The notes under the pieces are model-generated. The model was given only the letters and a program-made list of their open reading frames with translations, was not told the DNA's origin and made no database searches. 46,479 nt of DNA, from the IMG/VR virus record IMGVR_UViG_3300048565_000112, positions 1 to 46,479 of that record, one strand, 5' to 3'. Below, piece by piece: positions 2,290-27,077 of the stretch (the stretch's first letter is position 1; each line of letters starts with the position of its first letter). Position numbers and translations under genes: made by a program. The stretch is from a virus. Taxonomy: Duplodnaviria > Caudoviricetes.

Positions 2290-4437
2290 TTAGTTGTCAA
2301 CATTTAATACGTCTTTATTGTTTTCTTTAAAGTAACGGCCTTCGGCTAATGAAGTAATTGAAAATTGTGGGCGTCCCTGCTCGTCAAGTTCTCTGTTTAC
2401 AAGGTTGTTTTGTTTTAAGATCTTTCCTCTTTTTCCAACTAATTGATATGAACAATCTAACTCAGCTGCAATTTGTCTGGCATAAAGTGGCTCTTTTTCT
2501 GTAGCCAAGGTTTGAAGTATTTCTAATTCCGTCTTAGGTAATAAAAGTTCGGGCTTTAAATTTTGAATAACACTTTCATATTTTTTTGATAAATTGATTA
2601 CTATACATAACCCGTTTTTGCATTTGGGGCATTGCATACCATAAAGTTGTAAAGCGGGTACCATTTCGATGTCAAATTTCTCGTTGCAATTTTCGCACAC
2701 TACTTCTTGATTGTCTTTCATGTAATCCACCAGAATAGAACTATAGTCAAATACCCTTTCTACAAAATAAAGACGAAATTCACGTTGACCTCGAGGTCTG
2801 CCATATTCAAGATTGTATTTTTGGCAGAGCCCATAGTTAAGGGAAAACACAGTTACCTTGCGCCCATCCCTATCACTCATTTCAAAGTATTTTGTAAGGA
2901 AAAAATTTAATTCTAATGTTGAAAGCAATGCCTCCAAATTAGCTAAAACGTGAAAATGACTGGTTGGTGGAGTACCTGTTGTTTCACTTATCTTGATCAT
3001 TACCTTTGAACCGCGGTGGCTTTTTAATTCGCGAGATCGATTGACCACAGTTTCTAATAGCTCTTTTAGACTATAAACTGAAGACCGCTCATCAAAGGTC
3101 TGATGAAGGAATTTGTTCATAGAAAAATAGGGCTCAATTTTATCTTCATAATATTTTTGGGCTGCATCGCGTATTGATCTGCTTCCTATAGTTCGACCAT
3201 AAATTAGCTGAGATTCATACAGGTAAAACAATATGTACCCTAGATTTCGAGGGTTTGCCATAGTGGCATAAAACAGCAAACGCCATAAATCATCGTTTTG
3301 GTTTTGAGTAAAAAATATCTCAGGTTTTTTTCCACAATAGTGATTAATTCGACGCTCGATTATTCTTCTTGTGAAATCTACAGCCTTATCTTCCATGGTG
3401 GAAACATCATTTCCACCATACATCTTATAGGTATCAAGCGAGATCTCATCAATTTTTGTTTTGTCAATTTCCCCGTAATATACTCTTCCTGGGTAGGCCG
3501 CTATCTTAAATTTGATAAGCTCTTCAGACCAGTTGTTAAGCGGCGCCAATAGTGTGTCGACCACAATTTTCATTGCATCTTCGGGAAGTTCGGAAAAATC
3601 ATCAATAAATATGTATAACCGTTTGATGTTAATGGTTTCAAGTAATTTTTTTAACTTTAGAAGCAGTTCTTTAATATCGAGAACGCGCATGAGAATGTCA
3701 GAGTAATTCTGTTCATTTCCTTGCTTGACGGTCGTCGTGTTCGATATAGTAAGGCCTGCACTTATCTCAGGATTACTACTTACTTTTCCTGTAAGGTTAC
3801 CCTCCAGACCTTTAGATTGCTCTTTTTCTAATGATTCCTGGAGTTTGACTTTCTTTAATCCAAGTATGCTCATGAATCGATCATCATTATCATCATTTAT
3901 TAGGTCATCAAGATCTTTGAATAACTCATCAAGAGTTAGAGGACCAAATAAATTTAGTTTTAAATTTTCCCAAATTGAACTTTTTACTCGTTTTTTTAGT
4001 TCGTTTTGAATATCTAATACAACCTCTTTTAAGAATGCTTTGTAGAGTAAAAGCTTATGTAAAGTTTCTTCTGGAAGAATATTAGGAGCAATCTCTTGTG
4101 CCTTACTTAATAAATTTGAATCCACAGTAGAGGACTCGTAAAGAGTCTTTATGTCAATGTAAACAGAAAGAAAGGACGAATTCTTTCTTAACTCGTGCTG
4201 AGCTCTTTGGAAAACAGTAGATTTTCCTGTACCTTTTCTCCCAATGATAAATGTTGTATTAGGCTTTATAGTAGTTTGCAGCACATGATTGTTAGGAAGT
4301 GGGTCCACATAAAGTTTTTCAATTAAATTATTGCCACTATCCTCATCTTGTAATTCAGCTCGGCGATAAAGCTTCAAAGATTGAGCAGCTTCATGAAAAG
4401 CATTGAGTTGTGCTGAGGTCAAAAGTGGTTTTTGCAT
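2290..4437 (-). CDS. P-loop NTPase with C-terminal Zn ribbon and winged HTH (probable defence protein)
   Basis: 715 aa, AT-rich; Walker A GRKGTGKS, Walker B YIFIDDFSE, CENC...CPKC, C-terminal HTH (LYARQIAAELDCSYQLVGKRGK). Confidence 0.8.
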   Translation of the reverse strand: MQKPLLTSAQLNAFHEAAQSLKLYRRAELQDEDSGNNLIEKLYVDPLPNNHVLQTTIKPNTTFIIGRKGTGKSTVFQRAQHELRKNSSFLSVYIDIKTLYESSTVDSNLLSKAQEIAPNILPEETLHKLLLYKAFLKEVVLDIQNELKKRVKSSIWENLKLNLFGPLTLDELFKDLDDLINDDNDDRFMSILGLKKVKLQESLEKEQSKGLEGNLTGKVSSNPEISAGLTISNTTTVKQGNEQNYSDILMRVLDIKELLLKLKKLLETINIKRLYIFIDDFSELPEDAMKIVVDTLLAPLNNWSEELIKFKIAAYPGRVYYGEIDKTKIDEISLDTYKMYGGNDVSTMEDKAVDFTRRIIERRINHYCGKKPEIFFTQNQNDDLWRLLFYATMANPRNLGYILFYLYESQLIYGRTIGSRSIRDAAQKYYEDKIEPYFSMNKFLHQTFDERSSVYSLKELLETVVNRSRELKSHRGSKVMIKISETTGTPPTSHFHVLANLEALLSTLELNFFLTKYFEMSDRDGRKVTVFSLNYGLCQKYNLEYGRPRGQREFRLYFVERVFDYSSILVDYMKDNQEVVCENCNEKFDIEMVPALQLYGMQCPKCKNGLCIVINLSKKYESVIQNLKPELLLPKTELEILQTLATEKEPLYARQIAAELDCSYQLVGKRGKILKQNNLVNRELDEQGRPQFSITSLAEGRYFKENNKDVLNVDN

Positions 4438-4582
4438 GATTTTTAGTTTTGCACCTTTCTGAATTATTTACCTGACGAAGCTGTGCTGTTTACGAACATA
4501 TTTTGGGTTTTCAATAGACAATTGCGAATCTAGTCGGGATCGAAAGACAAGGAGTAATTCCTATGGTAGATATTCGGCCAGA

Positions 4583-7180
4583 TTATTGAAGAATCTTTGC
4601 ATCTATCTGGGCTTCAACTTTTCGCCCTTTTTCATCTACCTTGATCGCCAAAAGGAAGAGGGCCTTTTTATCGCTTTTCTCTTCCCATTTTTCGCCGATG
4701 TTCTTCTTTTCCTGTGAACCATCAATTAAATGTGCGCCTTTGTATTCGATGACAAAGATGCGCCCGTCGTTGAGCATGGCCACAAAGTCGGGGTAAAAGA
4801 AGTGCCCATTCGAGAGCGGAAGGCGGAAGGCCCAGGTTTCCTGGACAAGGTTCCGCACCCAGTATTTGACGTGTTCATTCTGGTCGATGCTCTTGGCGCA
4901 CTCCAACTCTTCTGTGTCGAGTTCAGCGATGGTATTGCCGTAGTAGTGTTTGTTGAATTGATAGCTGCCCTGATAAAAAGCGTTGGCGGGGTAGCTCTTG
5001 GGGTCGAATATGAAGGCGTAATCGTAGGTGGTTTGAGCGGTGGTGGTGTCACCAAATAATAAGGCTTGATAGTTTTTCTGGCTGTCTGTCACTTGATGAT
5101 CTTTTACTTTTTTGGCAATTGCTTTTAGCAATTGAAAGCGCCCTCGGACCAGCGTGACGAGGGATATTTTGCGCTTCTCCAGCAATTGCTTTAATATCCT
5201 GCGTGTGAATTCAAGCAGGTCTTCAGCGCGAATATTGGGTTGACGCAAGCGTGGCTCCAGCCAGCGCGAGAGTTGCAGGTCGGTCAGGCCGCTTTCGGTG
5301 TCGCTAAAATCAAGCGGGAGTTGTTTACCTAAAAATTTATAGGTGAGTTTTTCACCTTGGATATCGAACTCGTAGCTGGTGGCTTTCTCTTCGACGGTAA
5401 AGTCTATTTCGGTGAGTTCGGCGGGGTAGTCGAGGAGCTTCCATAGGTGGTCGTCCAAAACGTACTCTGCAAGTTCGGGTTCCCCATCCACCTGAAGGCT
5501 TAGTTGGGGAACGACAAAAGGCTCACCGCGTTCGGCAGGGGAGAGCGGGCGTTTTGGATGCTGGCGGTATAGTACTATGGTTTCACTGACTCTGAGACGA
5601 TCCTGTTCCTGCACAGAGGCGATGATCTTCTTTTCCAGTTCAGGGGTGACTTCTCCAGAGACGCGCAGAAGCAGACGATCATCCTGACCCGTTTCGATCT
5701 TTAATTGTGCGCGTTCCACCAGATTAAACTTTGAAAGGTCGGGTTCTTCGGTGAGGAGGAAGACGACGGGTTCCTGCGATTTGAAGGTGATGGGGGAATC
5801 ATCCATAAAAGTAGCTTGTGCCTGTGTGTATTGTTGGGCTTCCAGCTTGTCGAAGCCCATGTCCACCAGGCAATCTTCCATCTGTTCGGCAGCTTGTGTC
5901 CAACTGGTGGAGGAAACATGGGCATAGGCGCGATTCAACTCGGTGTGGACACGTTCGCGGGCATAGGGCATGCGCAGCACGCGACCCAGCAATTGCTCGA
6001 CATCCTTCTTTGAATGGACGGTGGCTACCGAGCAGAAGACATAGGCGAAGGAGCAATCCCAGCCTTCCTTCAAGGCTTCCATCGTGATGATGGCTTCGAT
6101 CTTGTTGGCGGGGTCGAAGAGATTCACTCCGTCCAGTTCGCGCTGTATGCCTGTGGCAATGGCAATTTGACTGCGAGACAGGCCGCAAGTTTCCATCAAA
6201 AACTTTTCCACCACATCCACGGTCACTTCATGGCCTTTGTCTTCAGCCTGAATGAGCACAATCGGGCGCAGGAAATCGGGTTCTTTTGCGGCAATTTCAG
6301 CCAACTTGTTGCGCGTGAGAATAGCGTCCTGAACGGCTTGTTCCCAAGTCTGATGTTCGGTCAGGACGATGGGCAGCTTGATCATTTGCTCGTGCCTGAG
6401 CTGTGAGGCAGAGACGTTATACAGAATGTTGCTGCTATCGGTGGGGGTGGCGGTGAATTCAAAGACACATTCAGGTTGAATGCGGGTAAAGACTTCGTGC
6501 ATTAATTTGGTGCCAGCGTTGTGAGCCTCGTCCACGATGACCAGTGGACGGTGCAGGGTTAACAAGTTGCGGAAGGAAAACCTGGGCTTGCCCTTGTCTG
6601 TGCCTTCATCGATGGGTTCCAAATTGTCGATGTCTGCGGGCAGGTTTACGAAATGCGGCTCCAGATATTCATTGTGGGCATAGACCTTGCGGCCTTCGGT
6701 GTCTTTGACCTTCAGGCTGGCGAAGGTACCAACAAAGACGCAGGCGTGGTCGCGCAAATCCTGCGGGCGGATCTGGGTGAACTCGCTGATATCCAACACT
6801 TTGACATGGCCCTTGAAGGCAGCCATCAGGGCTTCACGGTTGGGATGGTTGGGGGATTTGAGGGTTTCGAGTGTTTGCTCGCGGATTATCTTGGTGGGGA
6901 CCAGCCACAGGATGAGTGGGTACTCATCATCCAGGTACATACCTGCCGCAATGGACGCGCTGCGGGCGGCCATGTAGGTCTTGCCACCGCCTGTTGGGAT
7001 ACGCAGACAGATGTACGGTGTTTCAGGCAGGGGCTTTAGCGGCTTGTATGCGCGAGGCTGTTCGTTCGCTTGGGTGATGCTCTCGAAAGCGGATTTTGCC
7101 CCCCGCACGCGCGCGGCTTCGAGATAGTTCTTCAAGATATCTAAAGCGGTTTCCTGATATTCTTTGCGTTGAAAGGACAT
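4583..7180 (-). CDS. res: Type III-like restriction subunit (SF2 helicase/ATPase + PD-(D/E)xK nuclease)
   Basis: PTGGGKT, DEAH, TATP, LKEGWD, QLLGRVLR and C-terminal YPDF...IEYKG; directly coupled to the upstream methyltransferase. Confidence 0.88.
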   Translation of the reverse strand: MSFQRKEYQETALDILKNYLEAARVRGAKSAFESITQANEQPRAYKPLKPLPETPYICLRIPTGGGKTYMAARSASIAAGMYLDDEYPLILWLVPTKIIREQTLETLKSPNHPNREALMAAFKGHVKVLDISEFTQIRPQDLRDHACVFVGTFASLKVKDTEGRKVYAHNEYLEPHFVNLPADIDNLEPIDEGTDKGKPRFSFRNLLTLHRPLVIVDEAHNAGTKLMHEVFTRIQPECVFEFTATPTDSSNILYNVSASQLRHEQMIKLPIVLTEHQTWEQAVQDAILTRNKLAEIAAKEPDFLRPIVLIQAEDKGHEVTVDVVEKFLMETCGLSRSQIAIATGIQRELDGVNLFDPANKIEAIITMEALKEGWDCSFAYVFCSVATVHSKKDVEQLLGRVLRMPYARERVHTELNRAYAHVSSTSWTQAAEQMEDCLVDMGFDKLEAQQYTQAQATFMDDSPITFKSQEPVVFLLTEEPDLSKFNLVERAQLKIETGQDDRLLLRVSGEVTPELEKKIIASVQEQDRLRVSETIVLYRQHPKRPLSPAERGEPFVVPQLSLQVDGEPELAEYVLDDHLWKLLDYPAELTEIDFTVEEKATSYEFDIQGEKLTYKFLGKQLPLDFSDTESGLTDLQLSRWLEPRLRQPNIRAEDLLEFTRRILKQLLEKRKISLVTLVRGRFQLLKAIAKKVKDHQVTDSQKNYQALLFGDTTTAQTTYDYAFIFDPKSYPANAFYQGSYQFNKHYYGNTIAELDTEELECAKSIDQNEHVKYWVRNLVQETWAFRLPLSNGHFFYPDFVAMLNDGRIFVIEYKGAHLIDGSQEKKNIGEKWEEKSDKKALFLLAIKVDEKGRKVEAQIDAKILQ

Positions 7181-7181
7181 G

Positions 7182-8696
7182 TCAGCGTGCCTTTATGTCG
7201 TAGGGAACCTGTTTGAAGTTGATGTTTTCGCGGGTCAGCCGTTGAGAGCCAAAGGTGGTCAGCTCGCCATAGATCACCTTGGAGCCCTGATGCGGGGGCA
7301 GGCTGGCAAGGATTTTGCCTGTCAGCACATTGCCGCCATCTTTGGCCTTATCGCCCAGGATGCCGTTGTAGAGAAGGTAATAGGCGGTGCCGTTGTGGAT
7401 CCCAAGCAGGGGGGAAGGCTGTTTGCCTTTGAAGCCGAGCGGGGTATGGGTTTCAGTAAACCAGATATGTGCAGCCAATGGATGGAATTTGACCACTGGG
7501 TTGATCTGACCTTCTTCGTTGAAGATGGTTTCGCCGAGACGATAGAAGTGAAAGCCACCGCCACCCTGCCAGCCTACTTCTTGACTGATGCCGCCCTGCT
7601 CACCTTCAATGACTTTCTTCAATCGTGGGGTGCAATGCGTAATAGCGTGTTCGCCCATTTCAATGCCGATATACCGCCTGCCCATTTTGTGAGCAACGGC
7701 AGCAGTTGTGCCTGAGCCGAGAAAGGAGTCAAGGACAAGATCATTTAGTTTTGTAGATATATACAATATTCGATGTAAGAGTCTTTCAGGCTTTGGTGTA
7801 TCGAAAGCATTATTAGCACCAAAAAGTTCGTTTATTTCTTTTTTTGCTTCTTGGTTATGGCCAACTTCATTGTTTGACCACCAAGTCCACGAACTTACGC
7901 CTTCGCTTTCAAACAAGTACGTCTTTACTCTTGGTCGCCCATTTTTATCTTTTCCATACCACATCCTGCCTTCGGCTACTAATTTGTTGTATTCGCTTTC
8001 AATGTTGCTCCAACAACGTCCTAAAGGCGGTTCATATACAGTGCCGCCTGGCGTTGTTAATTTGTACATTTGATTTGGTCGCCAACCTTGTGCCGTAAAG
8101 TCTGTTGAAACCCATGGGCCACGAGAGTCGTTGTCTGGGTTTTTATAGCCTTTTTTCTGTTCCTCAGTCAAAGGCATTTTATTAAAGCTAATATTATCGG
8201 CATTTTTTGCATAAACAATAATGTAGTCATGAGCTGCGCCTAGCTGAATTCTTGCGTCAGGTGAAGTTCTTTTTTGCCAAACAACATTAGCAATAAAATT
8301 CTTGCGATGAAATATCTCGTCTAATAAAATCCTAATATAAGGCTCTTCATTATCATCCATAGAAATCCAAATTGAGCCATTATCTGCTAGAAGATCGCGT
8401 AGTATTTCAAGGCGCGGGTACATTAGACTCAACCATGTAGAATGTTCCAGATTATCGTCATAATATTCAAAGGCGCTTTGGGTATTGTAGGGTGGGTCAA
8501 TGTAAATGCACTTCACCTGTCCCGCGTAGTATGGCAATAAGGCTTTCAAGGCTTCGAGGTTGTCGCCTTGAATGAGCATGTTCTCGGTGTTCGGGTCGCC
8601 AGCCGAAATTGCCTCATCCGCTTCGAGCAGGCGATAGGGTACGCGGCTGGAGGTCTTGCGCGCTTCTTCGTCATTAAGCCAGTGCAAAATGGGCAT
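7182..8696 (-). CDS. mod: Type III-like Mod DNA adenine methyltransferase
   Basis: QGDNLEAL, IYIDPPYN, TPKPERLL, DSFLGSGTT; beta-class motif order with a central target recognition domain. Confidence 0.92.
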   Translation of the reverse strand: MPILHWLNDEEARKTSSRVPYRLLEADEAISAGDPNTENMLIQGDNLEALKALLPYYAGQVKCIYIDPPYNTQSAFEYYDDNLEHSTWLSLMYPRLEILRDLLADNGSIWISMDDNEEPYIRILLDEIFHRKNFIANVVWQKRTSPDARIQLGAAHDYIIVYAKNADNISFNKMPLTEEQKKGYKNPDNDSRGPWVSTDFTAQGWRPNQMYKLTTPGGTVYEPPLGRCWSNIESEYNKLVAEGRMWYGKDKNGRPRVKTYLFESEGVSSWTWWSNNEVGHNQEAKKEINELFGANNAFDTPKPERLLHRILYISTKLNDLVLDSFLGSGTTAAVAHKMGRRYIGIEMGEHAITHCTPRLKKVIEGEQGGISQEVGWQGGGGFHFYRLGETIFNEEGQINPVVKFHPLAAHIWFTETHTPLGFKGKQPSPLLGIHNGTAYYLLYNGILGDKAKDGGNVLTGKILASLPPHQGSKVIYGELTTFGSQRLTRENINFKQVPYDIKAR

Positions 8697-10465: not shown

Positions 10466-10629
10466 ACGTCGAGCGCAACGGGTTCCCGTTCTGCCCCGGT
10501 GAAGGGACGGCTTCACGGGACTTCGCAGGTCCATTGCGCTCGAGGACGGGCGGCGCTGGGCAGGCGCCTGGTGCGCCCAAAGTATAGAACCCTTCCTTTC
10601 CCTTGTGTAGTTTTTCCGAAGGAACACGA

Positions 10630-11580
10630 ATGACCCCACAAACCGAACTCATCCCCTGGCGCGTCGCTCCCAGCCTGCACTGGACTGAAGATTTCGCCGC
10701 CTGGCTGCATGCGCACGACCGCAGGCCCAAGACCATCTCTGCCTATTTGCAGGACCTGCGCCACTTTGGGTGCTACTTCGAGCAGGTCAACGGCCTGGCC
10801 TTCACGCCCAGCCACCTCAACGCCATCGACGTTAAGGCCTACTTCGCCGCGCAGGACGCCGATAAACAGGTGGCCGCCACCTCCCGCAATCGGCGATTGG
10901 CCAGCCTGCGGGTGCTGGTGGGGTGGGCGGTGGAAGCGGACATGCTCGAATACGACCCGACCGTCAGCGTCAAGCGCCAGGAAGTCGAACTGGCCCCACG
11001 CGACCGCACCAACGCGGAAATGGCGCGCCTGGAGGAGGTCGTGCGCAATGGGCTGCACATCCGCTGCGCAGGCCACGGCCATGCCTGGCTGGCTGGCAGG
11101 GACCGCATCATGTGGGCGCTCTTCAAGAAAACAGGCCTGCGCATTCACGAGATTGCGGCGCTGCGCATCGATGACCTGGACTTCGATGCCAATGAGATCC
11201 ATGTGCTGGGCAAAGGCGGCAGGAAGGCCATGGTCACCATCAGTTCCGACTTGCGGGATCTGCTGGTGCATTGGGCGGCGCTGAACCCGTCGGCGGAGAC
11301 GCTGGTTTGCGGCTTGAATGGACGGGCGCTGACGACAGGTCAAATCCGTAGGCGCATCCAGATGATTGGCGAGGCGGCAGGCATCCACGATCTCAGGCCC
11401 CATGACCTGCGCCACACCTACGCATACCAATTCAAAGAACAACTGATGGACAGGGGATTGGATGAGAGCAAGGCCAAAGACGCGGTCCGCAGGCAATTAA
11501 GGCATAGCGACGAACGAACCACCCAATTATATTTCCGCGCGCGCCAGAGTGAGATCCGCGCCGCGGTGGAGGCGATGTAA
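10630..11580 (+). CDS. Tyrosine recombinase (XerC/Cre-like)
   Basis: N-terminal SAM-like domain (TISAYLQDL, TSRNRRLASLR); catalytic residues in GLRIHE, LGKGGRK, HDLRH, LRHS and TQLY. Confidence 0.92.
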   Translation: MTPQTELIPWRVAPSLHWTEDFAAWLHAHDRRPKTISAYLQDLRHFGCYFEQVNGLAFTPSHLNAIDVKAYFAAQDADKQVAATSRNRRLASLRVLVGWAVEADMLEYDPTVSVKRQEVELAPRDRTNAEMARLEEVVRNGLHIRCAGHGHAWLAGRDRIMWALFKKTGLRIHEIAALRIDDLDFDANEIHVLGKGGRKAMVTISSDLRDLLVHWAALNPSAETLVCGLNGRALTTGQIRRRIQMIGEAAGIHDLRPHDLRHTYAYQFKEQLMDRGLDESKAKDAVRRQLRHSDERTTQLYFRARQSEIRAAVEAM

Positions 11581-17170: not shown

Positions 17171-17188
17171 TTCAAAGGAGTGTATGCA

Positions 17189-18169
17189 ATGTCAATCAAG
17201 ATCGGTCTGGACCTGGGACAAAGTGCGGTGAAGATGGTGGGATCGAAGGGAAGCGTGATCTTCCCCAGCCTGGCTGCCCTGAGGGGAACATCCAACGTGG
17301 TGAGCCTGACCAGTAGGCGCAAGAAGAATGCCCCCATGCTGGTGGACGACCTGTACGTGGGTCACAACGCCCACCGCGACGGCATCCCGCTCGAGAACTT
17401 CTCCTTCGACCGTCTGGCCGGTGTCACGCCTGAAATGCGCGCCATCCTGCACGGCACGCTGACCGAATACCAGCACAAATTTGGTCCCTTCGGAGAGGAT
17501 GTGCAGATGGTGGTGGGGCTGCCTATGCAGATGCTGTTCGGCGATGAGAAGGTGGTGGAGAAGTACAAGAGCGGCGTCAAGCACTGGATCGGTGGAAATC
17601 ACCAGTGGACCGCGGATGGCGAACCCTTCACCCTGGATGTGACCCGTGTCGACCTGGCCCCGCAGGCGCTGGGAGCGCTCTTCGACTATGGCCTCTCGAT
17701 GGAGGGTCTCCCCAACGGCAGGGAAGGCGGAGAAGCCATGAAGCGTGAGTGCGCCATGATCTCCATCGGCTCGAACACGGTGGAACTGCAGGTCACCAAA
17801 CGCAATGATGACACCTTCCGCTTCAATGGCGGCAAACCCATCGGCGTGCGCTGGCTGCACAACCAGGTCGATCCCAATACCATGTGGACCTTCGGCGAGT
17901 TCGATCAGTTGTTGCGGGCAGGTGAGTTGCCCGAGGAGATCGAGATTGAATCCTTCCTGGGAGCCTGGGCGACACAGGTGTTGGACTTCGTCAACAAGAA
18001 ATGGAATGACGCCTTCCCCCGCTTCCACAGGATCTTCGTGGTGGGCGGTGGCTCGCTCCTCCTCAGACCGTATCTGGAAGCCAAGTTCAACAGCAAGGCG
18101 GTCTTCTTCGATGACCCGATCCTGCCGATCAGCCGCGGGCTGTACAAAAGCGCCCTGCGTGTGCGATAG
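17189..18169 (+). CDS. parM: ParM/StbA-family actin-like ATPase
   Basis: IGLDLGQSAVK (phosphate 1), VVGLP, PQALGA, ISIGSNT (phosphate 2 variant), VVGGGSLL (adenosine motif). Confidence 0.85.
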   Translation: MSIKIGLDLGQSAVKMVGSKGSVIFPSLAALRGTSNVVSLTSRRKKNAPMLVDDLYVGHNAHRDGIPLENFSFDRLAGVTPEMRAILHGTLTEYQHKFGPFGEDVQMVVGLPMQMLFGDEKVVEKYKSGVKHWIGGNHQWTADGEPFTLDVTRVDLAPQALGALFDYGLSMEGLPNGREGGEAMKRECAMISIGSNTVELQVTKRNDDTFRFNGGKPIGVRWLHNQVDPNTMWTFGEFDQLLRAGELPEEIEIESFLGAWATQVLDFVNKKWNDAFPRFHRIFVVGGGSLLLRPYLEAKFNSKAVFFDDPILPISRGLYKSALRVR

Positions 18170-18996: not shown

Positions 18997-19290
18997 ATGG
19001 ACGGGAAGCTGGGTAGCTTGAAACCGTGGACATGCAAAAATGGCCACGTGCTGGGCATGGTTCGCAGGGATCGTGAGAAGAGCAGGGAAGGCCGAGAGTT
19101 CTGGGTCTCGCGGCTGATGCTCTTCCGCCAGGCGCAAAGCCATCTCCAGAAGGACATAGATGTGATCGCGGTGATCGAGGGCACCACGCTGGACGTGCGC
19201 TGCTCGATGCCTGACTGCGGATGCGTCCGCACCTGGTGGATGGGGGAGGATGCGCTGGAGCGGGTATTGCAGCGGACAAATATGGTGTGA
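18997..19290 (+). CDS. small Zn-binding protein
   Basis: AAGGAG RBS; CKNGH...CSMPDC motifs. Confidence 0.65.
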   Translation: MDGKLGSLKPWTCKNGHVLGMVRRDREKSREGREFWVSRLMLFRQAQSHLQKDIDVIAVIEGTTLDVRCSMPDCGCVRTWWMGEDALERVLQRTNMV

Positions 19291-19308: not shown

Positions 19309-19339
19309 AATAGTCTGCCGAACAGCAGGCTGTTTTATT
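19309..19339 (+). terminator. intrinsic terminator ending the early operon
   Basis: AATAGTCTGC-CGAACA-GCAGGCTGTT followed by TTATT. Confidence 0.5.
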
Positions 19340-19517
19340 GTGGGATGGGGGAGTTGGACGTATAATTCAGGCAATCGACAGGCTGGTATGCGAATGGTTT
19401 CTGGGTAACCGATCTTTATGCTGGGCTTTTCTGGTAGACGAATTCGAGTTTTTCGTTATCGATAATTTCGTATTAATCTATGGCGGCCTAAAACCCTAAA
19501 TTAATTTAGGCATTAGA

Positions 19518-19575
19518 ATCCAACAAGCATATAAGGAATTGGGACGCGAAATGGCGTCCGAAACAATTGTTGGGC
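19518..19575 (+). other. degenerate attC-like site (R'' ATCCAAC ... R' GTTGGGC)
   Basis: RYYYAAC at 19518-19524, internal hairpin GGACGC/GCGTCC, GTTRRRY at 19569-19575; L boxes poorly paired. Confidence 0.5.
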
Positions 19576-19612
19576 GCTTAGTTAGTCATTTGCATACAAA
19601 AGAAGATAAAAA

Positions 19613-22429
19613 ATGTCAGAAGTGAACATAGAAGATAAAGCCAATGCTCTTCAAAAAATATTACATCGATTAGAAGCACTGGGACAATTTAGTGCTAAGT
19701 TCTTAATGTACTCAACTGCAATCGGTGCAATAACAATAATTGGCGGTGTAAATTTACCGCCTGACTTAAAATTATTATTTGAAGGTATAGGTATTAATAT
19801 TATTAGCTCCTTGATTGAACGGGTAGCAAAAGGGGAGGATATATCTGACGACACACTCAAATCAGAGATTAAAGATGTCGTTAATATTGAGAAAATTGAA
19901 ACACTACTTACAACAAATGATTTTTTCAGAGCCGTATCCAAACTGATGAGACGCCAAGATATTGCCCTCTTCAAGTTGCAAACAGCAGAGATCAATATCG
20001 TTGAAAAACTTGATACAGCATTGAATTATCTTCGGGAAACAAGATACTTAAGTGAAAAAACAGATTTCCCATTTCCTCCATACATTGCTCATCCTTATAC
20101 GCTTTCAGAGCAACATGGTTTTTTTGGGCGGCAAAAAGAAATTTCAACATTAACCAAGTGGGCTAATTCAAAACGAGAATCTTCATTACTATTTATAACA
20201 GGGCTTGGAGGGACGGGAAAAAGTGCGCTAGCGTGGAATTGGTTTAATCAAGTTCGAGATACCATTAAGTGGGATGGGATGATTTGGTGGAGTTTTTACA
20301 AAACGGATGCAAGTTTCGGAGACTTCATTGCACATAGTCTAGCATATATTAGTGGTCAGGAAATATCCGAAATAAGAAAGTTGCCTCGAGCTTCTCAAGA
20401 ACAAAATCTAATTAACTACCTTAACCATAACCGATTTCTTGTTGCAATTGATGGCTTAGAACGACTAACCTTTACTTACGCCAAATCGGCACTTCCGAAA
20501 GAAAAGCTCCGTTCTCCTCACAAGCATCTTGCGCAAATGGTTGACGAACGTGATGGACACTTTTTGCTATATCTAACCAGGCTGAAACAATCTTGTATTT
20601 TGATTACGAGCAGATTATATCCTTTTGATTTGTGCGACCAACATACATTTGAAAAAATACCCAACACTCATTTTATTCTTAAAAAAATGAAAAACATGGA
20701 CGCCCTTGCTTTATGGAAATCAATGGGCGTCAGCGGAAGGGAAGAGGATCTCTTTGCTTTATTCCATGCACTACACAACAATCCATTACTTATTAAAGTC
20801 TTAGCAGCTTCTATAATGAAATATCGCTCAGCCCCAGGAGATTTTGAGAAATGGGCTTTGGAAAACAAACATCTTAATCTTTATAAACATACGAGTTTGA
20901 GAGAAACAATAACTCACATTCTTGAATCGGCAAATATGGGAATTAACAAATCGCAAGGAAAAATCCTCGAAGTAATTTCTGCTTTAAGAACCCCCATTCA
21001 ATACATCTTGCTTTTTGATTTAATGGTCGGAAAGAAAACACCACCTTATATTGAATATCGATGTTTTGACCATGAGGAAGACTTTCACAACGCATTGGAT
21101 GATCTAGAAGAAAGAGGGTTGCTCTCATGGGACGCTGTGAACAACGTATATGACATCCACCCCCTCGTGCGCGATTTTGTTTGGTATTCATTACTAAAAA
21201 GTTCGCAAGAAAAAATTACTTCTGTCATGTTATACAGCTACTCCTTACTTAATATATTAGAGTCGCTAAACATCTCAGTTAATACTAACAATATTTCCAC
21301 AAGAATTGAATTATTCTTTTTAATGATTCGACTTGGGGAATACTCACAGGCATGGGAATTATGTGCAAATAATTTTCATTCTATCTTACAAGTTGATGGA
21401 GTTAGTCACTTAAGGACTATGCTCAATTCATTGGGCAAAGTCGCGTCACGCAGAATTGCCCCATTTGATAATCCAATTAATTTCGCAAGGCTACTAGGAT
21501 TATTCACTTCTATACATCTACTGAGAGGCAGTATTTCAAAGGCAAAACGGGTAGCAAAAAGCCAACTTTCAATTTTTCTTCAACAGGAACATTTTGAAGG
21601 TATCATTAGAAGTCAATTACAGTTAGCAATGCTTTTAGCTCTCTCAGGAGAATTTAAACAATCAGAAATGCTAGCAATTGACGCTTTCAGATGGAGCCAA
21701 AGACATTTTGATTACAATCTTTTAGGTTGGAGTCAATTAACCATAGGGCTAATAGGGCTATTAGCGGGTGACGAAGAAAACTCTATCAAAACAATACAAA
21801 ATGGCACTGCGTGGATAGCCTTAAAGAGTAAAATTTCCTGGGAAAGAGAAATTGCCTTATTTGTTCGTGCCCTCGTTTCTTCCCATACAGAGACTTTACC
21901 TGTTGAATTTAGTCAAAAAGGAAAATTGTATAGTTTAATATTGTTTATCATGCAAGGAGAACTTGCATTGACAGATAATAAATTAGATGATGCACAAACT
22001 TTCATAACGAACGCATTATTTTCTGCAAGAAGAACGGAATTCACTCTTTATGAGCTTATTAGTTTGTACATGCAAACTGAGATAGCAATCAAGCAAGGTG
22101 ACACAGATCTGTTTCGCAGGCTGGCAGTCAATCTGCTAAATCATCCAAATATCTATGATTTAAGATTTATTCAAGCAGATTTGCTGAACAATCTTGCCGA
22201 ATTAGAACAAAAAGAAGGTAATAATCCTGAGGCGATAGGATATGCAATTAAAGCATATGAAATTTCTTCTTCAGAAGGGAATTCTCCATTCTTTTTAAAG
22301 GAACTGGAAAGAGCAGCAACTATTATCCGTAAATCCGATGGCGAGATTCCAGAAAAACTAATATCAAAACCATCGAAAGAAAAAATAGTCATAGATCCAG
22401 ATTTAGGAGAGTTGCTCAAAATTATGTGA
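19613..22429 (+). CDS. STAND (NB-ARC/NACHT-like) NTPase with TPR-like C-terminus, probable antiviral NLR
   Basis: 938 aa, AT-rich; FFGRQKE, GLGGTGKS, LVAIDGLE, LITSR, NNPLLIK, YDIHPLVRD (MHD-like), then helical TPR-like repeats. Confidence 0.85.
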   Translation: MSEVNIEDKANALQKILHRLEALGQFSAKFLMYSTAIGAITIIGGVNLPPDLKLLFEGIGINIISSLIERVAKGEDISDDTLKSEIKDVVNIEKIETLLTTNDFFRAVSKLMRRQDIALFKLQTAEINIVEKLDTALNYLRETRYLSEKTDFPFPPYIAHPYTLSEQHGFFGRQKEISTLTKWANSKRESSLLFITGLGGTGKSALAWNWFNQVRDTIKWDGMIWWSFYKTDASFGDFIAHSLAYISGQEISEIRKLPRASQEQNLINYLNHNRFLVAIDGLERLTFTYAKSALPKEKLRSPHKHLAQMVDERDGHFLLYLTRLKQSCILITSRLYPFDLCDQHTFEKIPNTHFILKKMKNMDALALWKSMGVSGREEDLFALFHALHNNPLLIKVLAASIMKYRSAPGDFEKWALENKHLNLYKHTSLRETITHILESANMGINKSQGKILEVISALRTPIQYILLFDLMVGKKTPPYIEYRCFDHEEDFHNALDDLEERGLLSWDAVNNVYDIHPLVRDFVWYSLLKSSQEKITSVMLYSYSLLNILESLNISVNTNNISTRIELFFLMIRLGEYSQAWELCANNFHSILQVDGVSHLRTMLNSLGKVASRRIAPFDNPINFARLLGLFTSIHLLRGSISKAKRVAKSQLSIFLQQEHFEGIIRSQLQLAMLLALSGEFKQSEMLAIDAFRWSQRHFDYNLLGWSQLTIGLIGLLAGDEENSIKTIQNGTAWIALKSKISWEREIALFVRALVSSHTETLPVEFSQKGKLYSLILFIMQGELALTDNKLDDAQTFITNALFSARRTEFTLYELISLYMQTEIAIKQGDTDLFRRLAVNLLNHPNIYDLRFIQADLLNNLAELEQKEGNNPEAIGYAIKAYEISSSEGNSPFFLKELERAATIIRKSDGEIPEKLISKPSKEKIVIDPDLGELLKIM

Positions 22430-22458
22430 AAATTAAGCAAAAACGCCCAACAAAGCGT

Positions 22459-22853
22459 CCTCAGAAACCGTCCCACCCCAAGCGCCCCGGATGACACATT
22501 CCGGGGTGCTTTTTGGGGGAAGATAACGCCGATCTTCCGTTCGAAGCCCTAAAATCGCCAAAATCCTGCGGGGACTTAAATGCAAAGCAGGCGCCTTGCC
22601 GGTAGACGCCGATCGAAGGGCGTATTTCGGGGTCCGCCCCTATGCAGGTACCAGTTGATAGCCGAGCTTTGCCGCCTTCTTCTTCATGTACTTTACCTGC
22701 TGCTCTTCATACTTCTGTTGATACTCGTTCACGCTCAACGGGTCATACTCCACCTTGTACTTGAGCATCTTGTATACCGTCCGCGCGATGGCGTGCGCCG
22801 TTGCCACCGTTGCCTGCGCGGACGTGTGCTGTTCGGTGCCAGACTGAGGATGC
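22459..22853 (-). mobile_element. IS110-family remnant (transposase C-terminus plus downstream non-coding end)
   Basis: Minus strand ~22822-22640 reads AQATVATAHAIARTVYKMLKYKVEYDPLSVNEYQQKYEEQQVKYMKKKAAKLGYQLVPA*, typical of an IS110 transposase C-terminus; a 9/10 inverted repeat GCGTCCTCAG (22455) / CTGAGGATGC (22844) flanks it. Element boundaries are approximate. Confidence 0.7.
22480..22514 (+). terminator. GC-rich hairpin with T tract downstream of the STAND gene
   Basis: AAGCGCCCCGGA...TCCGGGGTGCTT then TTT. Confidence 0.5.
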
Positions 22854-22931
22854 GTCGGAGCGGTTGCTGCAGCACATAATTATAGCTAGGGTATAATTCA
22901 AGTGTAATTTATTTGATTAAAAGGAGATCGA

Positions 22932-23936
22932 ATGCCTTCGGGAGACGCTTTAAGGAGGTTATTTAAGAGCTACAAGCAGCTTGACGCTGATGGCTTTCAC
23001 GCGGCTGCTTATGAACTCATTAATGAAGAAAAGCAAAAGAAACATAATATATTAGCCCGCGACCTTCAACGAATACTTGAAAACGGGAATGGAAAGTCTG
23101 TGAATAATTATCAGATAAGCGAATTGCAACGATTGCCCAAAGATACTGAACGTGGTACGTTGTTATTTGATATAAAGACACCTACTAAGTACTTAAGTGA
23201 CATTGTCCTGGATGAAAAACTTCAGCAACAGGTAGGAGAAATTATTGATGAATTTAATTATAGCGAGGTACTACTGACTCATGGAATGTCCTCACGTCGA
23301 AAATTATTGTTTGCTGGACCTCCTGGATGTGGAAAGACTTTATGCTCTCAAATAATAGCTTCGGAACTGGGATTGCCGATGCTCTACACAAGATTTGATG
23401 CTGTAATTTCTTCTTACTTGGGAGAAACTGCCAGTAATTTACGGAAGGTGTTTGATTTCGCACAATCAGGAACTTGGGTTGTTTTTTTTGATGAGTTTGA
23501 TGCAATTGGAAAAAGTAGAGACGATCTTTCAGAGCATGGAGAATTGAAAAGAGTCGTCAATACATTTCTACAGTTGTTAGATGGCTTTGGGTCAGATAGC
23601 CTTTTTATAGCAGCGACTAATCATGAATCATTGCTAGATAATGCATTGTGGCGAAGATTTGATGATATTCTCTTTTTTGATAAGCCTAATCCTGAACAGA
23701 TACGGAAATTGTTAAATATAAAGTTAGCCAGCTTCTCACATAAAAAATTGGATGTTGAACCCTTCCTTCAGGATATGAAGGGATGGTCGCACGCAGATGT
23801 AGAGCATGTCTGTATTGATTCTATGAAGATGGCAGTATTAAGTCAAAGAGAAGAAATAACAAATGACTTATTTAAGAAGGCTATTGAAAAACAGAAGTAT
23901 CGAGATCTGTTGATTAAAAAAAGTCAGAGAAAATAA
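22932..23936 (+). CDS. ietA: AAA+ ATPase (IetA-like)
   Basis: GPPGCGKT, FFDEFDAIGK, AATN, LWRRFD; directly upstream of an S8 protease. Confidence 0.85.
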   Translation: MPSGDALRRLFKSYKQLDADGFHAAAYELINEEKQKKHNILARDLQRILENGNGKSVNNYQISELQRLPKDTERGTLLFDIKTPTKYLSDIVLDEKLQQQVGEIIDEFNYSEVLLTHGMSSRRKLLFAGPPGCGKTLCSQIIASELGLPMLYTRFDAVISSYLGETASNLRKVFDFAQSGTWVVFFDEFDAIGKSRDDLSEHGELKRVVNTFLQLLDGFGSDSLFIAATNHESLLDNALWRRFDDILFFDKPNPEQIRKLLNIKLASFSHKKLDVEPFLQDMKGWSHADVEHVCIDSMKMAVLSQREEITNDLFKKAIEKQKYRDLLIKKSQRK

Positions 23937-23948
23937 GGGAGTATCAAC

Positions 23949-26363
23949 ATGGCCGATGAGGGATTAAGACATTTATCATTACGAAAAATTGATATACAAT
24001 ACGAACGCAAGAAGTCAAAGAAAAAAATCCCACAACCTACTAGACCACCAAACGTAGAATATGGGAAAGAGTTAGAACTGCTTGTCCAACAAGTGGAGGA
24101 AGACTACAAAGCTTCTATGAAGGTTGCTCCTCCAGAATTTGATCCTGCCCTGATTTTTAGAATTAAACTTGACAAAACTCAGGTGCCTGATGAGCAATGG
24201 GAACGTAGCCAGTTAACGGTTCTTAGTGAGGAACCTGGTGGCTATGTAGTCCTTTTTTCCGCAGATCAGTTGGCTGAATTCAGAAGCCGGATTGAAAAAT
24301 ATGGAGAGGAAATTCAGCCTGATAAAAAGGGCCCCCAATATGCTTGGATTGCTTCACTCGCTACTGATATGAAGCTATGGGGAAAAGAAGACCGAATCGG
24401 TAAGAAACTATCGAAAATAGAAATTTGTCCTAATGAGAGATATTTACTAGATGTAGAACTATGGGCTTACGGGGAGAGACAAGATTGGGATAAGCGAATG
24501 AATGAGCTCAAAACCTACATAATAAATTCGGGTGGTGAGTTCTTGGATAAGTTTGTTAGCGTGACTATAAATGTAGCGCGCGTGAGAACCAATGGTGAGA
24601 CTTTGGAGCATTTACTTGATGTGGGAATTGTTGAGAGAATAGATATTCCACCCCAGCCAGATATATATTTGGGGCAATTAATTAATACCCAAATAGATGA
24701 CTTTAAAGCACCTATCAACCCACCTGTCAATGACGCGCCGAGTATTTGTATCATTGATAGTGGTATTGCTGTAGGACATCCACTCATTGGCCCAGCCATT
24801 GGGGATGTTTCTTCTATCCCCACTAAAATCGGTTTGGGGATAGATGATCATGGCCATGGGACGATGGTGGCTGGCGTTGCTCTTTACGGTGACGTAGAAC
24901 AAGCTGTTAGCACACTTAATTTCGAACCCAACCTGTATATCTACGGTGCTAAAGTTACTAACAAAGAGGGTAAATTTGATGATGAGCGGCTGATTGTTAA
25001 TCAGATGAGTGAAGCTATAAGGTATTTCTCTGAAACCTATGGATGCCGAATCTTTAATATATCCTTGGGCGATCCTTCTCATGTTTTTAGCGATGGAAGA
25101 CCATCTCTTTGGGCTCAGATATTGGACACCTTAGCTGCTGAGTTGGATGTGTTGATTTTAGTTTCCGCAGGAAATTTTAACCTGCGAGAATTAAGCTCGG
25201 AAGAAGCCGAGCTTTATCAAGATCGATACCCAAAATATTTATTGGAATTGGAGGATGCGCGTATTATTGAACCAGCTACGGCAGTAAATGCCCTGACTGT
25301 TGGTTCGCTAGCCAGGTCAGAAGCTTCAAAGGCTGCCGCTAGATATCCGAATGATCCATCGATACGTATTGTTGCCGATATAAACCAACCTTCACCATTC
25401 ACACGATCAGGACCTGGGGTTAATGGGTCCATAAAGCCTGATGTTTGTGATTATGGTGGAAATTCTGTTTGGAGTGGTTACCACAGAAGGATTTATTCAG
25501 ATGATCCTGAAACTGGCATTATGACCATGAGTCATGAGCCTGGTGGCAGACCGTTCACTATAGGCCATGGGACTAGTTTGGCTACCCCCAAAGTAGCTTA
25601 TTTAGCTGGACAGATTTTGGTACATTACCCTGGTATTAGTGCAAACCTTATTCGTGCTCTAATTGCAAATTCAGCATCAATTCCAATCGCTGTCTCTGAG
25701 CTTGGCTTAAGTTATGAAGAGCAGTTGAGGTTATGCGGATATGGTCAGCCAAATCATAATGCTGCGCTTTACTCTAATGAACATCGTGTTACTTTAACTG
25801 CAGAAGATGAAATCCCTTTGAATGGCGTACATATCTTTCAAGTGCCCATACCTGTTGAGTTTAAAGAAAGCAAGGGAAAACGGAAGGTGAGTGTGTGTTT
25901 AGCATATGATCCACCTGTCCGTTTTTCGAGGAAGGAATATCTCGGTATTAAGATGGACTATGATTTAATCCGTGGACTTTCAACTGAAGAGATCGTTAAA
26001 CTTTATGCCAATGTTGACGCCGAAATGAATGAGGGTGATCAAAATGAAGAAAACGAAGAAGGAAATGATGCTTCTTCTAGTTATAAATGTAAAATGGATA
26101 TAAATTGGACTTTAAGACGAAAAAATACATTACAAAAAGGCATATGGAATATAAGCAGAAGTACTTCTATAACCAATTATGCAGGTGATGTATTGCATTT
26201 AGTGGTGCGTTCGTATTCAACGCCATGGGTGGCACAGCAGGTTTTAGATGGCCAAAGATATGCACTAGCAATAACTTTAGAGCATTCGGATGAGCAAGTC
26301 CAATTTTATAATTCTATCCAGCAATTTGTGCGGCAACAGCAACGCGTCAGAATCCGTCAATGA
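23949..26363 (+). CDS. ietS: Subtilisin-family S8 serine protease (IetS-like)
   Basis: Catalytic triad in IIDSG, HGHGTMVAG and GTSLATP; SAGN; no signal peptide; 804 aa. Confidence 0.88.
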   Translation: MADEGLRHLSLRKIDIQYERKKSKKKIPQPTRPPNVEYGKELELLVQQVEEDYKASMKVAPPEFDPALIFRIKLDKTQVPDEQWERSQLTVLSEEPGGYVVLFSADQLAEFRSRIEKYGEEIQPDKKGPQYAWIASLATDMKLWGKEDRIGKKLSKIEICPNERYLLDVELWAYGERQDWDKRMNELKTYIINSGGEFLDKFVSVTINVARVRTNGETLEHLLDVGIVERIDIPPQPDIYLGQLINTQIDDFKAPINPPVNDAPSICIIDSGIAVGHPLIGPAIGDVSSIPTKIGLGIDDHGHGTMVAGVALYGDVEQAVSTLNFEPNLYIYGAKVTNKEGKFDDERLIVNQMSEAIRYFSETYGCRIFNISLGDPSHVFSDGRPSLWAQILDTLAAELDVLILVSAGNFNLRELSSEEAELYQDRYPKYLLELEDARIIEPATAVNALTVGSLARSEASKAAARYPNDPSIRIVADINQPSPFTRSGPGVNGSIKPDVCDYGGNSVWSGYHRRIYSDDPETGIMTMSHEPGGRPFTIGHGTSLATPKVAYLAGQILVHYPGISANLIRALIANSASIPIAVSELGLSYEEQLRLCGYGQPNHNAALYSNEHRVTLTAEDEIPLNGVHIFQVPIPVEFKESKGKRKVSVCLAYDPPVRFSRKEYLGIKMDYDLIRGLSTEEIVKLYANVDAEMNEGDQNEENEEGNDASSSYKCKMDINWTLRRKNTLQKGIWNISRSTSITNYAGDVLHLVVRSYSTPWVAQQVLDGQRYALAITLEHSDEQVQFYNSIQQFVRQQQRVRIRQ

Positions 26364-26459: not shown

Positions 26460-27077
26460 ATGCCCATTCCCAAACCCACTTATCAGTTACCGCTTGAGCT
26501 GGATCTGCCAGCACCCGAAGACGGGGGGAGCATCGGAATTGAGGAAGACCGCCAGCGAAGCGAGCTCGCACAGAAAACCCTGGAGGCCATGTTCGGCAAG
26601 GCTGGTGCACCGCGCTGGCTCGAGGACTACCTTGAGCTGGTGCGCGGAGGCTGGCCCTGGCGGGTGGCCGCGTACATTGCCTGGGCATCGAGTCCCAGGG
26701 CGGGGCGCGAGCCGAAGACCCAGGACGAGCTGGCCCGAATCCATCTGGGTCTGACCAGCGACCGTGCGATCAGCACCTGGCGCAAACGCAATCCCGCCAT
26801 CGACGAGGTCGTGCGCATGTTGCAGGCGGGTCCGCTCTTCAAGCATCGCGCCGAGATCTTCACCGCCCTGGTGGCCGTGGCGGTCAAGCCCGAGTACAAG
26901 AGCCACGCGGACCGCAAGCTGGCGCTGGAGCTGATGGGAGACTACACCCCGCTGCACAAGGTCCTGGCCGAACTGCGCCGCAAGGGTGATGGCGATATAA
27001 GCGACCTGAGCGACTCCGAGCTGGCGGACATCGCCGCCTCGCTCGAGGAGGACAAGCATGGACAGGATCCAGCCTGA
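26460..27077 (+). CDS. Terminase small subunit-like HTH protein
   Basis: TQDELARIHLGLTSDRAISTWRK HTH, ADRKLALELMGDY; first gene of the late region. Confidence 0.65.
   Translation: MPIPKPTYQLPLELDLPAPEDGGSIGIEEDRQRSELAQKTLEAMFGKAGAPRWLEDYLELVRGGWPWRVAAYIAWASSPRAGREPKTQDELARIHLGLTSDRAISTWRKRNPAIDEVVRMLQAGPLFKHRAEIFTALVAVAVKPEYKSHADRKLALELMGDYTPLHKVLAELRRKGDGDISDLSDSELADIAASLEEDKHGQDPA

Follow-up and report, generated by a model that had tools for sequence, protein, structure and literature searches.

The window analysed here is the entire 46.5-kb virus record IMGVR_UViG_3300048565_000112, and the subject of this report is an AT-rich cargo slot in it, which holds a gene for an NLR-like STAND NTPase in what reads as an integron cassette. 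The window carries genes for an integrase, a helix-turn-helix (HTH) repressor-like protein, a primase, a large terminase, and portal, capsid and tail proteins; on the basis of its integrase, repressor-like, primase, terminase and structural genes it is identified as a temperate tailed phage. Its host is likely a member of the Anaerolineae, because the kin of an insertion sequence (IS) remnant and of the attachment (att) sites point there. The AT-rich stretch lies between a conserved phage gene, termed gene X, and a probable terminase small subunit gene, and contains the STAND gene and an ietA-ietS pair. A 26.8-kb piece from one bioreactor run, possibly the source sample itself, covers the whole of this stretch with 0 differences. 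The central features are as follows.

19473..19569, + strand: solo attI site, Anaerolineae-type, 97 bp, crossover G^TT at 19569/19570, assigned by homology to host sites and by a host profile
19570..22457, + strand: gene cassette, 2888 bp, 36% G+C (phage backbone ~60%), made up of TTGGGC, an open reading frame (ORF) and the R'' half of an attC site
19613..22429, + strand: STAND NTPase, 938 aa, with a helical module (~1-150), an NB-ARC-like NTPase and winged helix (~165-525) and a TPR solenoid (~530-910)
22445..22457, + strand: R'' end of an Anaerolineae attC, first 13 bp (GCCCAACAAAGCG), the rest gone
22458..22819, - strand: right end of an IS110-family element with the last 60 transposase codons, truncated; kin up to 91% identical, mostly Chloroflexota

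We read the slot as an integrase-free integron, in which an attI is followed by the STAND cassette and the attC of the cassette is cut by an IS110 element; cassettes would have been loaded by a host integron integrase (IntI) acting in trans. This reading is considered probable. A sequence-only reading of the same DNA had proposed that the STAND gene is an integron cassette captured by the phage, that a degenerate attC lies upstream of it and that no IntI is present. Its motifs and coordinates could all be reproduced. IntI is indeed absent from the 46.5-kb contig: its sole tyrosine recombinase, encoded at 10603-11580, reaches 60.9 bits where 265 are required. The window thus has no intI beside the attI, as a complete integron would, and with 0 intact attC sites by the attC model it is no CALIN (a cluster of at least two attC sites without an integrase).

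An attI site, a cassette and an interrupted attC

The element that the sequence-only reading had noted upstream of the gene was first found to resemble DNA upstream of intI in two host integrons. A search with such upstream-of-intI DNA matched 29 of 251 genomes of one family, and the 30 host loci returned share a conserved element of ~100 bp, the complete copies of which end at a GTT core and have differing genes behind them. The window at 19473-19575 is 83% identical over 130 nt to L252, 84% over 108 nt to L247 and 80% over 104 nt to L244, which bears a divergent intI. The similarity to host sites begins at 19473 and stops at the core GTT, with a different gene behind each site. A profile built from 23 host loci, with the window excluded, matches 19473-19572 at 61.7 bits (E 1.5e-18). 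A divergent intI adjoins the attI in 6 of the 30 loci (5 genomes), and the other 24 are without an adjacent intI, as judged on flanks of up to 1.5 kb, some shorter. Downstream attC sites on the same strand (strands taken from coordinates) accompany 13 of 32 attI loci, and three 5-kb host stretches show attI, cassette and attC without intI. Because its homologues sit between intI and the first cassette and the host profile matches the window, the upstream site is read as an attI from a family that often lacks an integrase; it is conserved, ends at G^TT, has intI-adjacent homologues and is followed by varied first genes.

Several observations concern the attI family at large. The inner 21 bp of the site (window 19493-19513), between CTAA and TTAG repeats, occur in either orientation among host copies, the window-type orientation being that of L242, L244, L246, L247, L252, L254, L225 and L231; they may form an invertible or symmetric binding element. 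In the copies at L232-L261, as at 19473 in the window, similarity starts sharply at TTAA, often shortly past a -10-like box. Locus L262 (3575-6170) holds three tandem attI copies, each ahead of one gene, and no attC match was obtained between them, so that the units appear to be delimited by attI. Transposase genes labelled IS91-like from reading of the sequences, one form of which comes with a tyrosine recombinase, lie right behind GTTGAAC at the attI in L174, L178, L205, L225 and L231, like first cassettes. An 85-nt match in L225 and L231 was considered as the end of such an element and rejected, as the wider family is that of the attI and the element lies behind the GTT.

GTTGGGC at 19569-19575, 37 nt ahead of the ATG at 19613, and GCCCAAC at 22445-22451, 15 nt past the stop (22429), form an inverted match that runs to 10 bp. 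When the flanks of the gene (80 nt upstream and 40 nt downstream, stretches that were picked after the match had been seen) were dinucleotide-shuffled, 14 of 20,000 shuffles produced an exact GTTRRRY/complement pair and 67 a 10-bp inverted match of any kind. A control set of 17 loci with both attI and attC reveals a rule: the attI 7-mer is the exact complement of the R'' of the first attC in 15 and is one base off in 1 more. The core pair of the window follows this rule. The 13-mer GCCCAACAAAGCG also opens an uninterrupted attC in the phage locus L002 (at 12835) and in the host locus L248, and it is the exact flank at 6 of 42 IS ends in host loci. The sequence-only reading had named a mismatch between this motif and the starts of host attC sites, together with homologues that are never attC-flanked, as grounds for abandoning it; the motif matches. 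The attI core, the R'' complement and the control rule indicate that the STAND-TPR gene is a cassette by origin and a complete one no longer, since no whole attC with paired L and R boxes is present and 13 bp of it are left before the IS110 end. That an attI is followed here by a true cassette is, in our assessment, very probable. With its attC incomplete, the STAND cassette would have become inaccessible to excision by IntI, and the attI would still take new cassettes ahead of it.

The interruption of the downstream attC by the IS110 element had escaped the sequence-only reading. The transposase remnant encoded at 22640-22819 (-) comprises the final 60 residues and is 91% identical to the C-terminus of the transposase of L104, which in full length passes the IS110 model NF033542; relatives were analysed at the best 60 of 70 loci, mostly Chloroflexota genomes. 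At the DNA level, 22444-22821 matches L105 with 81% identity over 379 nt, and the right end of the element lies at 22458-22469. An attC-like flank follows 28 of 42 right-end motifs (2 further motifs with too short a flank were left out) versus 2.1% of random places, and when empty sites are read over both IS ends, many whole attC sites with paired ends emerge (L118, L129, L133, L116). Some copies lie off-target, in non-attC sites (L119, L120, L122). Because 28 of 42 ends are attC-flanked and the 13-mer starts intact host-type attC sites, we take GCCCAACAAAGCG for the R'' end of an attC of the host type that was interrupted by an IS110 element with attC as its target.

Both ends of the element are non-coding, over ~290 nt on the left and 170-190 nt on the right, and an inverted motif occurs near both, ~35-45 nt inside on the left, in a comparison with traits of the IS1111 subgroup; a quick look for a target guide within the left end gave nothing. 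A hairpin at 22471-22520 was rejected as part of the attC and belongs to the IS right end. The element is truncated at 22819 and fused to a decayed 3' end of gene X, which is followed by a second TATAAT and then by ietAS. We also note a phage attC array in L268 that comes with a fragment of IntI; one of its attC sites (~4975-5030) holds a 34-bp leftover of the same IS110, with both ends and no transposase.

The slot around the cassette and in related phages

The remaining features of the slot are its edges, a candidate promoter and a second cargo unit.

18997..19290, + strand: gene X, conserved phage gene of 97 aa without a family match, left slot edge; 43 homologous proteins
19338..19369, + strand: candidate slot promoter and putative cassette promoter (Pc), from sequence; TTGTGG-N17-TATAAT at 19338-19366, TATAAT at 19361-19366
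22820..22900, + strand: decayed second 3' end of gene X with a 29-bp internal deletion, and TATAAT; opens the second cargo unit
22932..26363, + strand: ietA and ietS, an established defence pair of an AAA ATPase and an S8 protease; PADLOC IetA E 1e-96, IetS E 2e-145
26460..27077, + strand: probable terminase small subunit, named by position alone; right slot edge

Relatives of gene X were found at 43 viral and 59 metagenome loci, with terminase genes behind most of the long ones. Homologues of the right-edge gene sit ahead of the large terminase in most relatives, and its product has no PHROG or Pfam match. The letters of the Pc-like promoter proposed by the sequence-only reading are in place, and they make a weak consensus match that is missing from the list of the consensus scan (12 sites found versus 18.1 expected); promoter and terminator scans of the window gave no excess over shuffles, and an Rfam scan gave nothing at E up to 1. 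The string GTATAATTCA of the promoter region is found again ahead of ietA, and in the related phage locus L001 the TATAAT sits 60 nt past gene X. In a self-search of the window, the copy at 22820-22900 is 86% identical over 37 bp to 19191-19227 (E 8e-5). No attC was detected around ietAS by the attC model.

Locus L001 shows a tandem gene X end with promoter among ~8 AT-rich cargo genes (3600-3690, 6035-6135, 7040-7060, 7916-7945), one ORF of which lies between half attC sites. GTTGGGC behind gene X in L001 was considered as a shared junction and rejected, as it aligns with the second promoter copy of that locus.

The slot was surveyed at 63 gene X loci in which it is closed or in which gene X is followed by 1.5 kb or more of sequence, after removal of 7 known duplicates. 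An integron integrase co-oriented with gene X occupies the slot in 8 of them; seven of the eight pass TIGR02249 and that of L017 reaches 245 of 265 bits, and together they represent six distinct proteins at <90% identity. These are integrons of the inverted type, in which IntI lies directly past gene X (L002 10444-13195; L004, L045, L047, L049, L085, L090, L017). A scan of 96 loci placed attC on the same strand behind IntI in L002, L004, L045, L047, L049 and weakly L017, and attC without an integrase in L025 and L042; four of the attC sites in slot relatives also belong to the training set of the model. L002, L004 and L045 share a common site behind intI and differ in their first cassettes. 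The arrays of these phage integrons consist of small phage-like genes, the ends of which often run into the attC. Among 70 of 84 slot ORFs scanned with PADLOC, 10 matched, none of them at a locus with attC; the matches include type IV Cas8, Cas7 and a CysH-like gene (L010, L023) and PDC-M41B/M30B (four loci). The type IV-like cas8, cas7 and CysH-like genes fill the slot in L010 (9221-13118) and L023 (10268-13958).

The slot is thus viewed, from these comparisons, as a general cargo site that integrons fill as one route among others. The sequence-only reading had seen in it a place that takes up host integron defence cassettes and had suggested that related phages be aligned: the slot is filled differently among them and integrons do occur there, and defence did not emerge as the rule among the cassettes scanned.

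Use of the site and rival explanations

The proposed course of events, in a provisional order, begins with a phage that gained a solo attI ~100 nt past the slot promoter. A host IntI would have inserted a circular STAND cassette into the attI at G^TT, under that promoter, and an IS110 would have entered the attC at the position that such elements usually take. A related phage may then have recombined with this one; the exchange would have introduced ietAS, placed a second gene X end directly against the IS and deleted what else there was of the IS and the attC, fixing the cassette and leaving the attI open.

Metagenome contigs bear on whether the site has been used within phages. In X21, one of two wetland runs of the same study (X21 and X22) and from another habitat than the phage record, a 250-nt contig matches 19349-19573 with one difference (19419, outside the attI) and continues into 25 other letters, which start like the first cassette of host locus L236. 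In a second X21 contig of equal depth, the IS remnant adjoins a gene X end that lacks the deletion. A 299-nt contig of X22 shows 4 differences from the window; it runs from the gene X end through the promoter into the attI, of which it covers the left half. The STAND gene is not covered in X21 or X22, nor ietAS in X21, and such contig gaps were not counted as evidence; contigs of an RNA run, X14, lie on parts of the STAND gene and are not evidence of transcription. By this comparison, the wetland relative has the slot architecture in common with the window and differs in its first cassette at the crossover, with the attI unchanged. A scan of viral contigs for the attI pattern also returned L266, an otherwise unrelated phage contig. 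It has the same attI, at 81% identity over 109 nt, followed by a cassette for 223 aa and by an attC that is intact and scores 80.8 bits; no IntI is present in its fetched 5.9 kb, which stops at the contig edge behind the attC. One match of the type-A attI pattern in viral contigs, L267, was set aside as chance. IntI was found in 92 of 301 genomes of the host order. We consider IntI-driven turnover at the attI inside the phage to be quite probable.

The strongest rival to this account is passive capture, by which a chromosomal attI, the STAND gene and an attC/IS110 piece were acquired through illegitimate or homologous recombination; the attI would be inert and the cargo would change solely through recombination between phages or between phage and host copies. 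Solo attI arrays do exist on host chromosomes, the IS remnant is fused to the second gene X end at 2-4 nt of microhomology, L001 has a similar tandem gene X end, and ietAS arrived without att sites, all of which speak for passive capture. The wetland contig is harder to accommodate, as it is identical through the attI and diverges right past the crossover, whereas recombination with a host attI (69-86% identical to the phage site) should leave differences within the site. An unchanged attI with a new cassette therefore speaks, on this one short contig, more for site-specific exchange than for recombination with a host site that has diverged, and passive capture is regarded as rather unlikely.

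The sequence-only reading had taken the upstream 58 bp, beginning with ATCCAAC at 19518, for a degenerate attC; by this view, or with the 58 bp as a secondary attG, the gene would be an isolated cassette or what is left of an array of attC sites. The stretch has R''-like and R'-like ends, and its bottom strand (19519-19575) folds better than 200 of 200 shuffles (z -3.65), the hairpin being part of the attI. A covariance model of 13 intact attC sites, however, found no significant site in the window and gave the 58-mer 6.3 bits (E 8.6), a score to be read with the bias of the model against short sites, as it was trained on 13 longer ones (7 found by regular expression and 6 others); a first rule-based finder had been set aside as too strict. 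On visual inspection, no more than 5 of 7 L-box pairs can be formed, short of an attC. The 103 nt at 19473-19575 also match host sites that are situated between intI and the first cassette, and this view was replaced by the attI and is held to be very improbable. Pure coincidence, in which IS110 picked an attC look-alike behind an ordinary gene and GTTGGGC stands upstream by chance, can draw on the IS copies in non-attC sites and on 35 occurrences of GTTRRRY on the + strand of the window, and it is dismissed as scarcely credible, since GTTGGGC sits exactly at the crossover of an independently found attI and obeys the complement rule.

A number of points weigh against the integrase-free integron and the defence role of its cargo. 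The attI of the window was found in 0 of the phage loci L001-L103, and the window-type attI thus appears rare in this phage family. The turnover is read from a single short contig of one study, in which the loose end measures 25 nt, and contigs assembled from metagenomes may blend strains. The host genome lies outside the data, and a host intI or a chromosomal copy of the cassette was unseen. The cassette genes scanned in the related phage integrons gave 0 PADLOC matches, and the STAND gene is likewise without a match in PADLOC 2023, later families being outside that library; no recognisable effector is present in the protein. At the loci of distant STAND relatives (27-42% identity), which the sequence-only reading had suggested be searched for in cassette arrays, attC was found in 0 of 15, three of which stop before the stop codon; this counts against cassette-borne STANDs being common.

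Beyond the window, a more general model can be formulated tentatively, to which we give slightly less than even weight. The Anaerolineae may possess a distributed integron, in which an attI of ~100 bp is spread without integrase and served by one IntI in trans, and which temperate phages adopt as a cargo port. With similar caution, the model would also cover phages with their own IntI, and a lysogenic phage would carry off host cassettes, NLR-like genes among them.

The STAND protein and known systems

The Walker A, Walker B and other family motifs of the STAND NTPase are intact, which places it in the family, and weak Pfam matches to NB-ARC, AAA_16 and TPR_12 agree. A structure model with a mean predicted local distance difference test score (pLDDT) of 73.6 has as its best Foldseek match in the PDB 6MFV (PH0952, a STAND-TPR protein, E 3e-13), followed by plant NLRs, Apaf-1 and CED-4; Avs3 is the 26th match (E 2e-6), and these fold matches are remote, at 12-14% identity. 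A protein search returned 19 relatives (24-35% identical), many with DUF4062, HTH or Mrr-like N-termini. A genome search that scored two candidates per genome found relatives in 12 of 401 genomes of the class; judged from the sequences, their N-termini are DUF4062-like or TIR-like.

Residues 1-150 are all-helical and confidently modelled (pLDDT 86.9). The module occurs in 163 clusters, and in the 30 scanned it is fused to NB-ARC, TIR, trypsin, CHAT, GGDEF and TPR domains. No Pfam family or fold match was obtained for it: the best Foldseek E value is 0.88, and VIA-align gives a best Z of 6.1 that reflects a long helix only, which is no proof of a new fold. The atlas offers NNH2 as a lead (0.85, 133 shared features), below its own bar. 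Its fusion pattern resembles that of adaptor domains, for which action by homotypic contacts has been proposed by Kaur et al. 2020 (PMC7159879).

A defence role is suggested by the STAND architecture and the ietAS neighbour, and an antiviral function is judged somewhat probable. The TPRs of an NLR-like sensor would bind a product of a competing phage and the NTPase would oligomerise; the helical N-terminal module would then act on the cell or recruit a partner, and the lysogen would be protected. Direct action of the module on the membrane is an alternative. The protein could also be the sensor of a signalling or conflict system, its N-terminal adaptor needing a host-encoded partner as do the effector-associated domains of multicellular bacteria. 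The fusions of the module to NB-ARC, TIR plus NB-ARC, trypsin, CHAT plus NACHT, GGDEF and TPR proteins speak for an adaptor, as do its lack of a catalytic family or fold match and the title of the closest solved structure, PH0952, which names only a STAND protein with a TPR sensor. Set against this, the STAND gene is alone in its cassette, beside ietAS and in a phage cargo slot, and most close relatives carry DUF4062 or other effector-type N-termini at the same position; the adaptor is accordingly unlikely, though a more serious competitor than passive capture is to the integron.

Integron cassettes serve as libraries of defence and resistance genes, and the integron fragments of phages have so far mostly been read as passive captures. 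If the attI works, it would provide a direct on-ramp from the host cassette pool to a transmissible genome and, if this is true, one answer to how the hotspots of temperate phages obtain cargo from unrelated DNA. Searches for attC and integrase would miss a unit without intI or a whole attC, and such cases may be undercounted.

In a set of 10,705 phages, Qi et al. 2023 (PMC9892861) report 17 CALINs, 3 complete integrons and a single integrase on its own, and in Shewanella prophage M16-3 a CALIN with its own attI among late genes. As there, the window has integron parts without a cognate integrase in a tailed temperate phage. The solo attI of M16-3 is a single case, and the cryptic prophage around it contains a complete integron as well; the attI of the window, in contrast, comes from a dispersed host family and is found in two phage contigs, with a 2.9-kb NLR-like gene and a sign of exchange. 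Defence genes packaged in cassettes behind an upstream promoter are likewise described by Darracq et al. (10.1101/2024.07.02.601686) and Kieffer et al. (10.1101/2024.07.02.601719), where the cassettes were tested and stem from chromosomal and plasmid integrons of Proteobacteria, whereas that of the window is phage-borne with a STAND gene and a predicted defence role. ISKpn4 and ISPst6 are also IS110-family elements with one fixed place near the attC end (Siddiquee et al. 2024, PMC11187229), and the IS of the window differs from them in its Chloroflexota lineage and non-coding ends on both sides. Avs and other STAND-TPR proteins (PMC13581612, with 589 STAND clades; PDB 6MFV, 8DGC) share the order of N-terminal module, STAND NTPase and TPR sensor and have swappable N-termini, while the STAND protein here has no PADLOC model match and remote fold matches.

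SALINs and attG insertions (Loot et al., 10.1101/2022.09.11.507474) likewise place a single cassette far from an integrase, at a short genomic attG motif rather than a full conserved attI as here. The defence hotspots of P2/P4 phages (PMC13586616) are similarly fixed slots between core genes with fast-changing cargo; the word 'integron' is absent from the text of that paper, and the turnover of the window slot is partly via integron sites. Integrons with an inverted integrase have already been described. A literature search, outside which most subscription papers lay, returned no integrase-free attI family of Chloroflexota and no phage use of one. Integrons in phages, cassettes for defence and IS elements that target attC have all been described; a solo-attI family as an apparent phage cargo port appears to be new.

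Two other regions of the window deserve mention. A second cargo block at 2290-8696 (-) holds a type III restriction-modification pair and a 715-aa P-loop NTPase with weak Sll1717 and DS41 matches, and no attC or attI sites were matched in it. At 17180-18169, an actin-like protein (ALP_N) and a small downstream gene form a ParM/ParR-like pair alongside the integrase.

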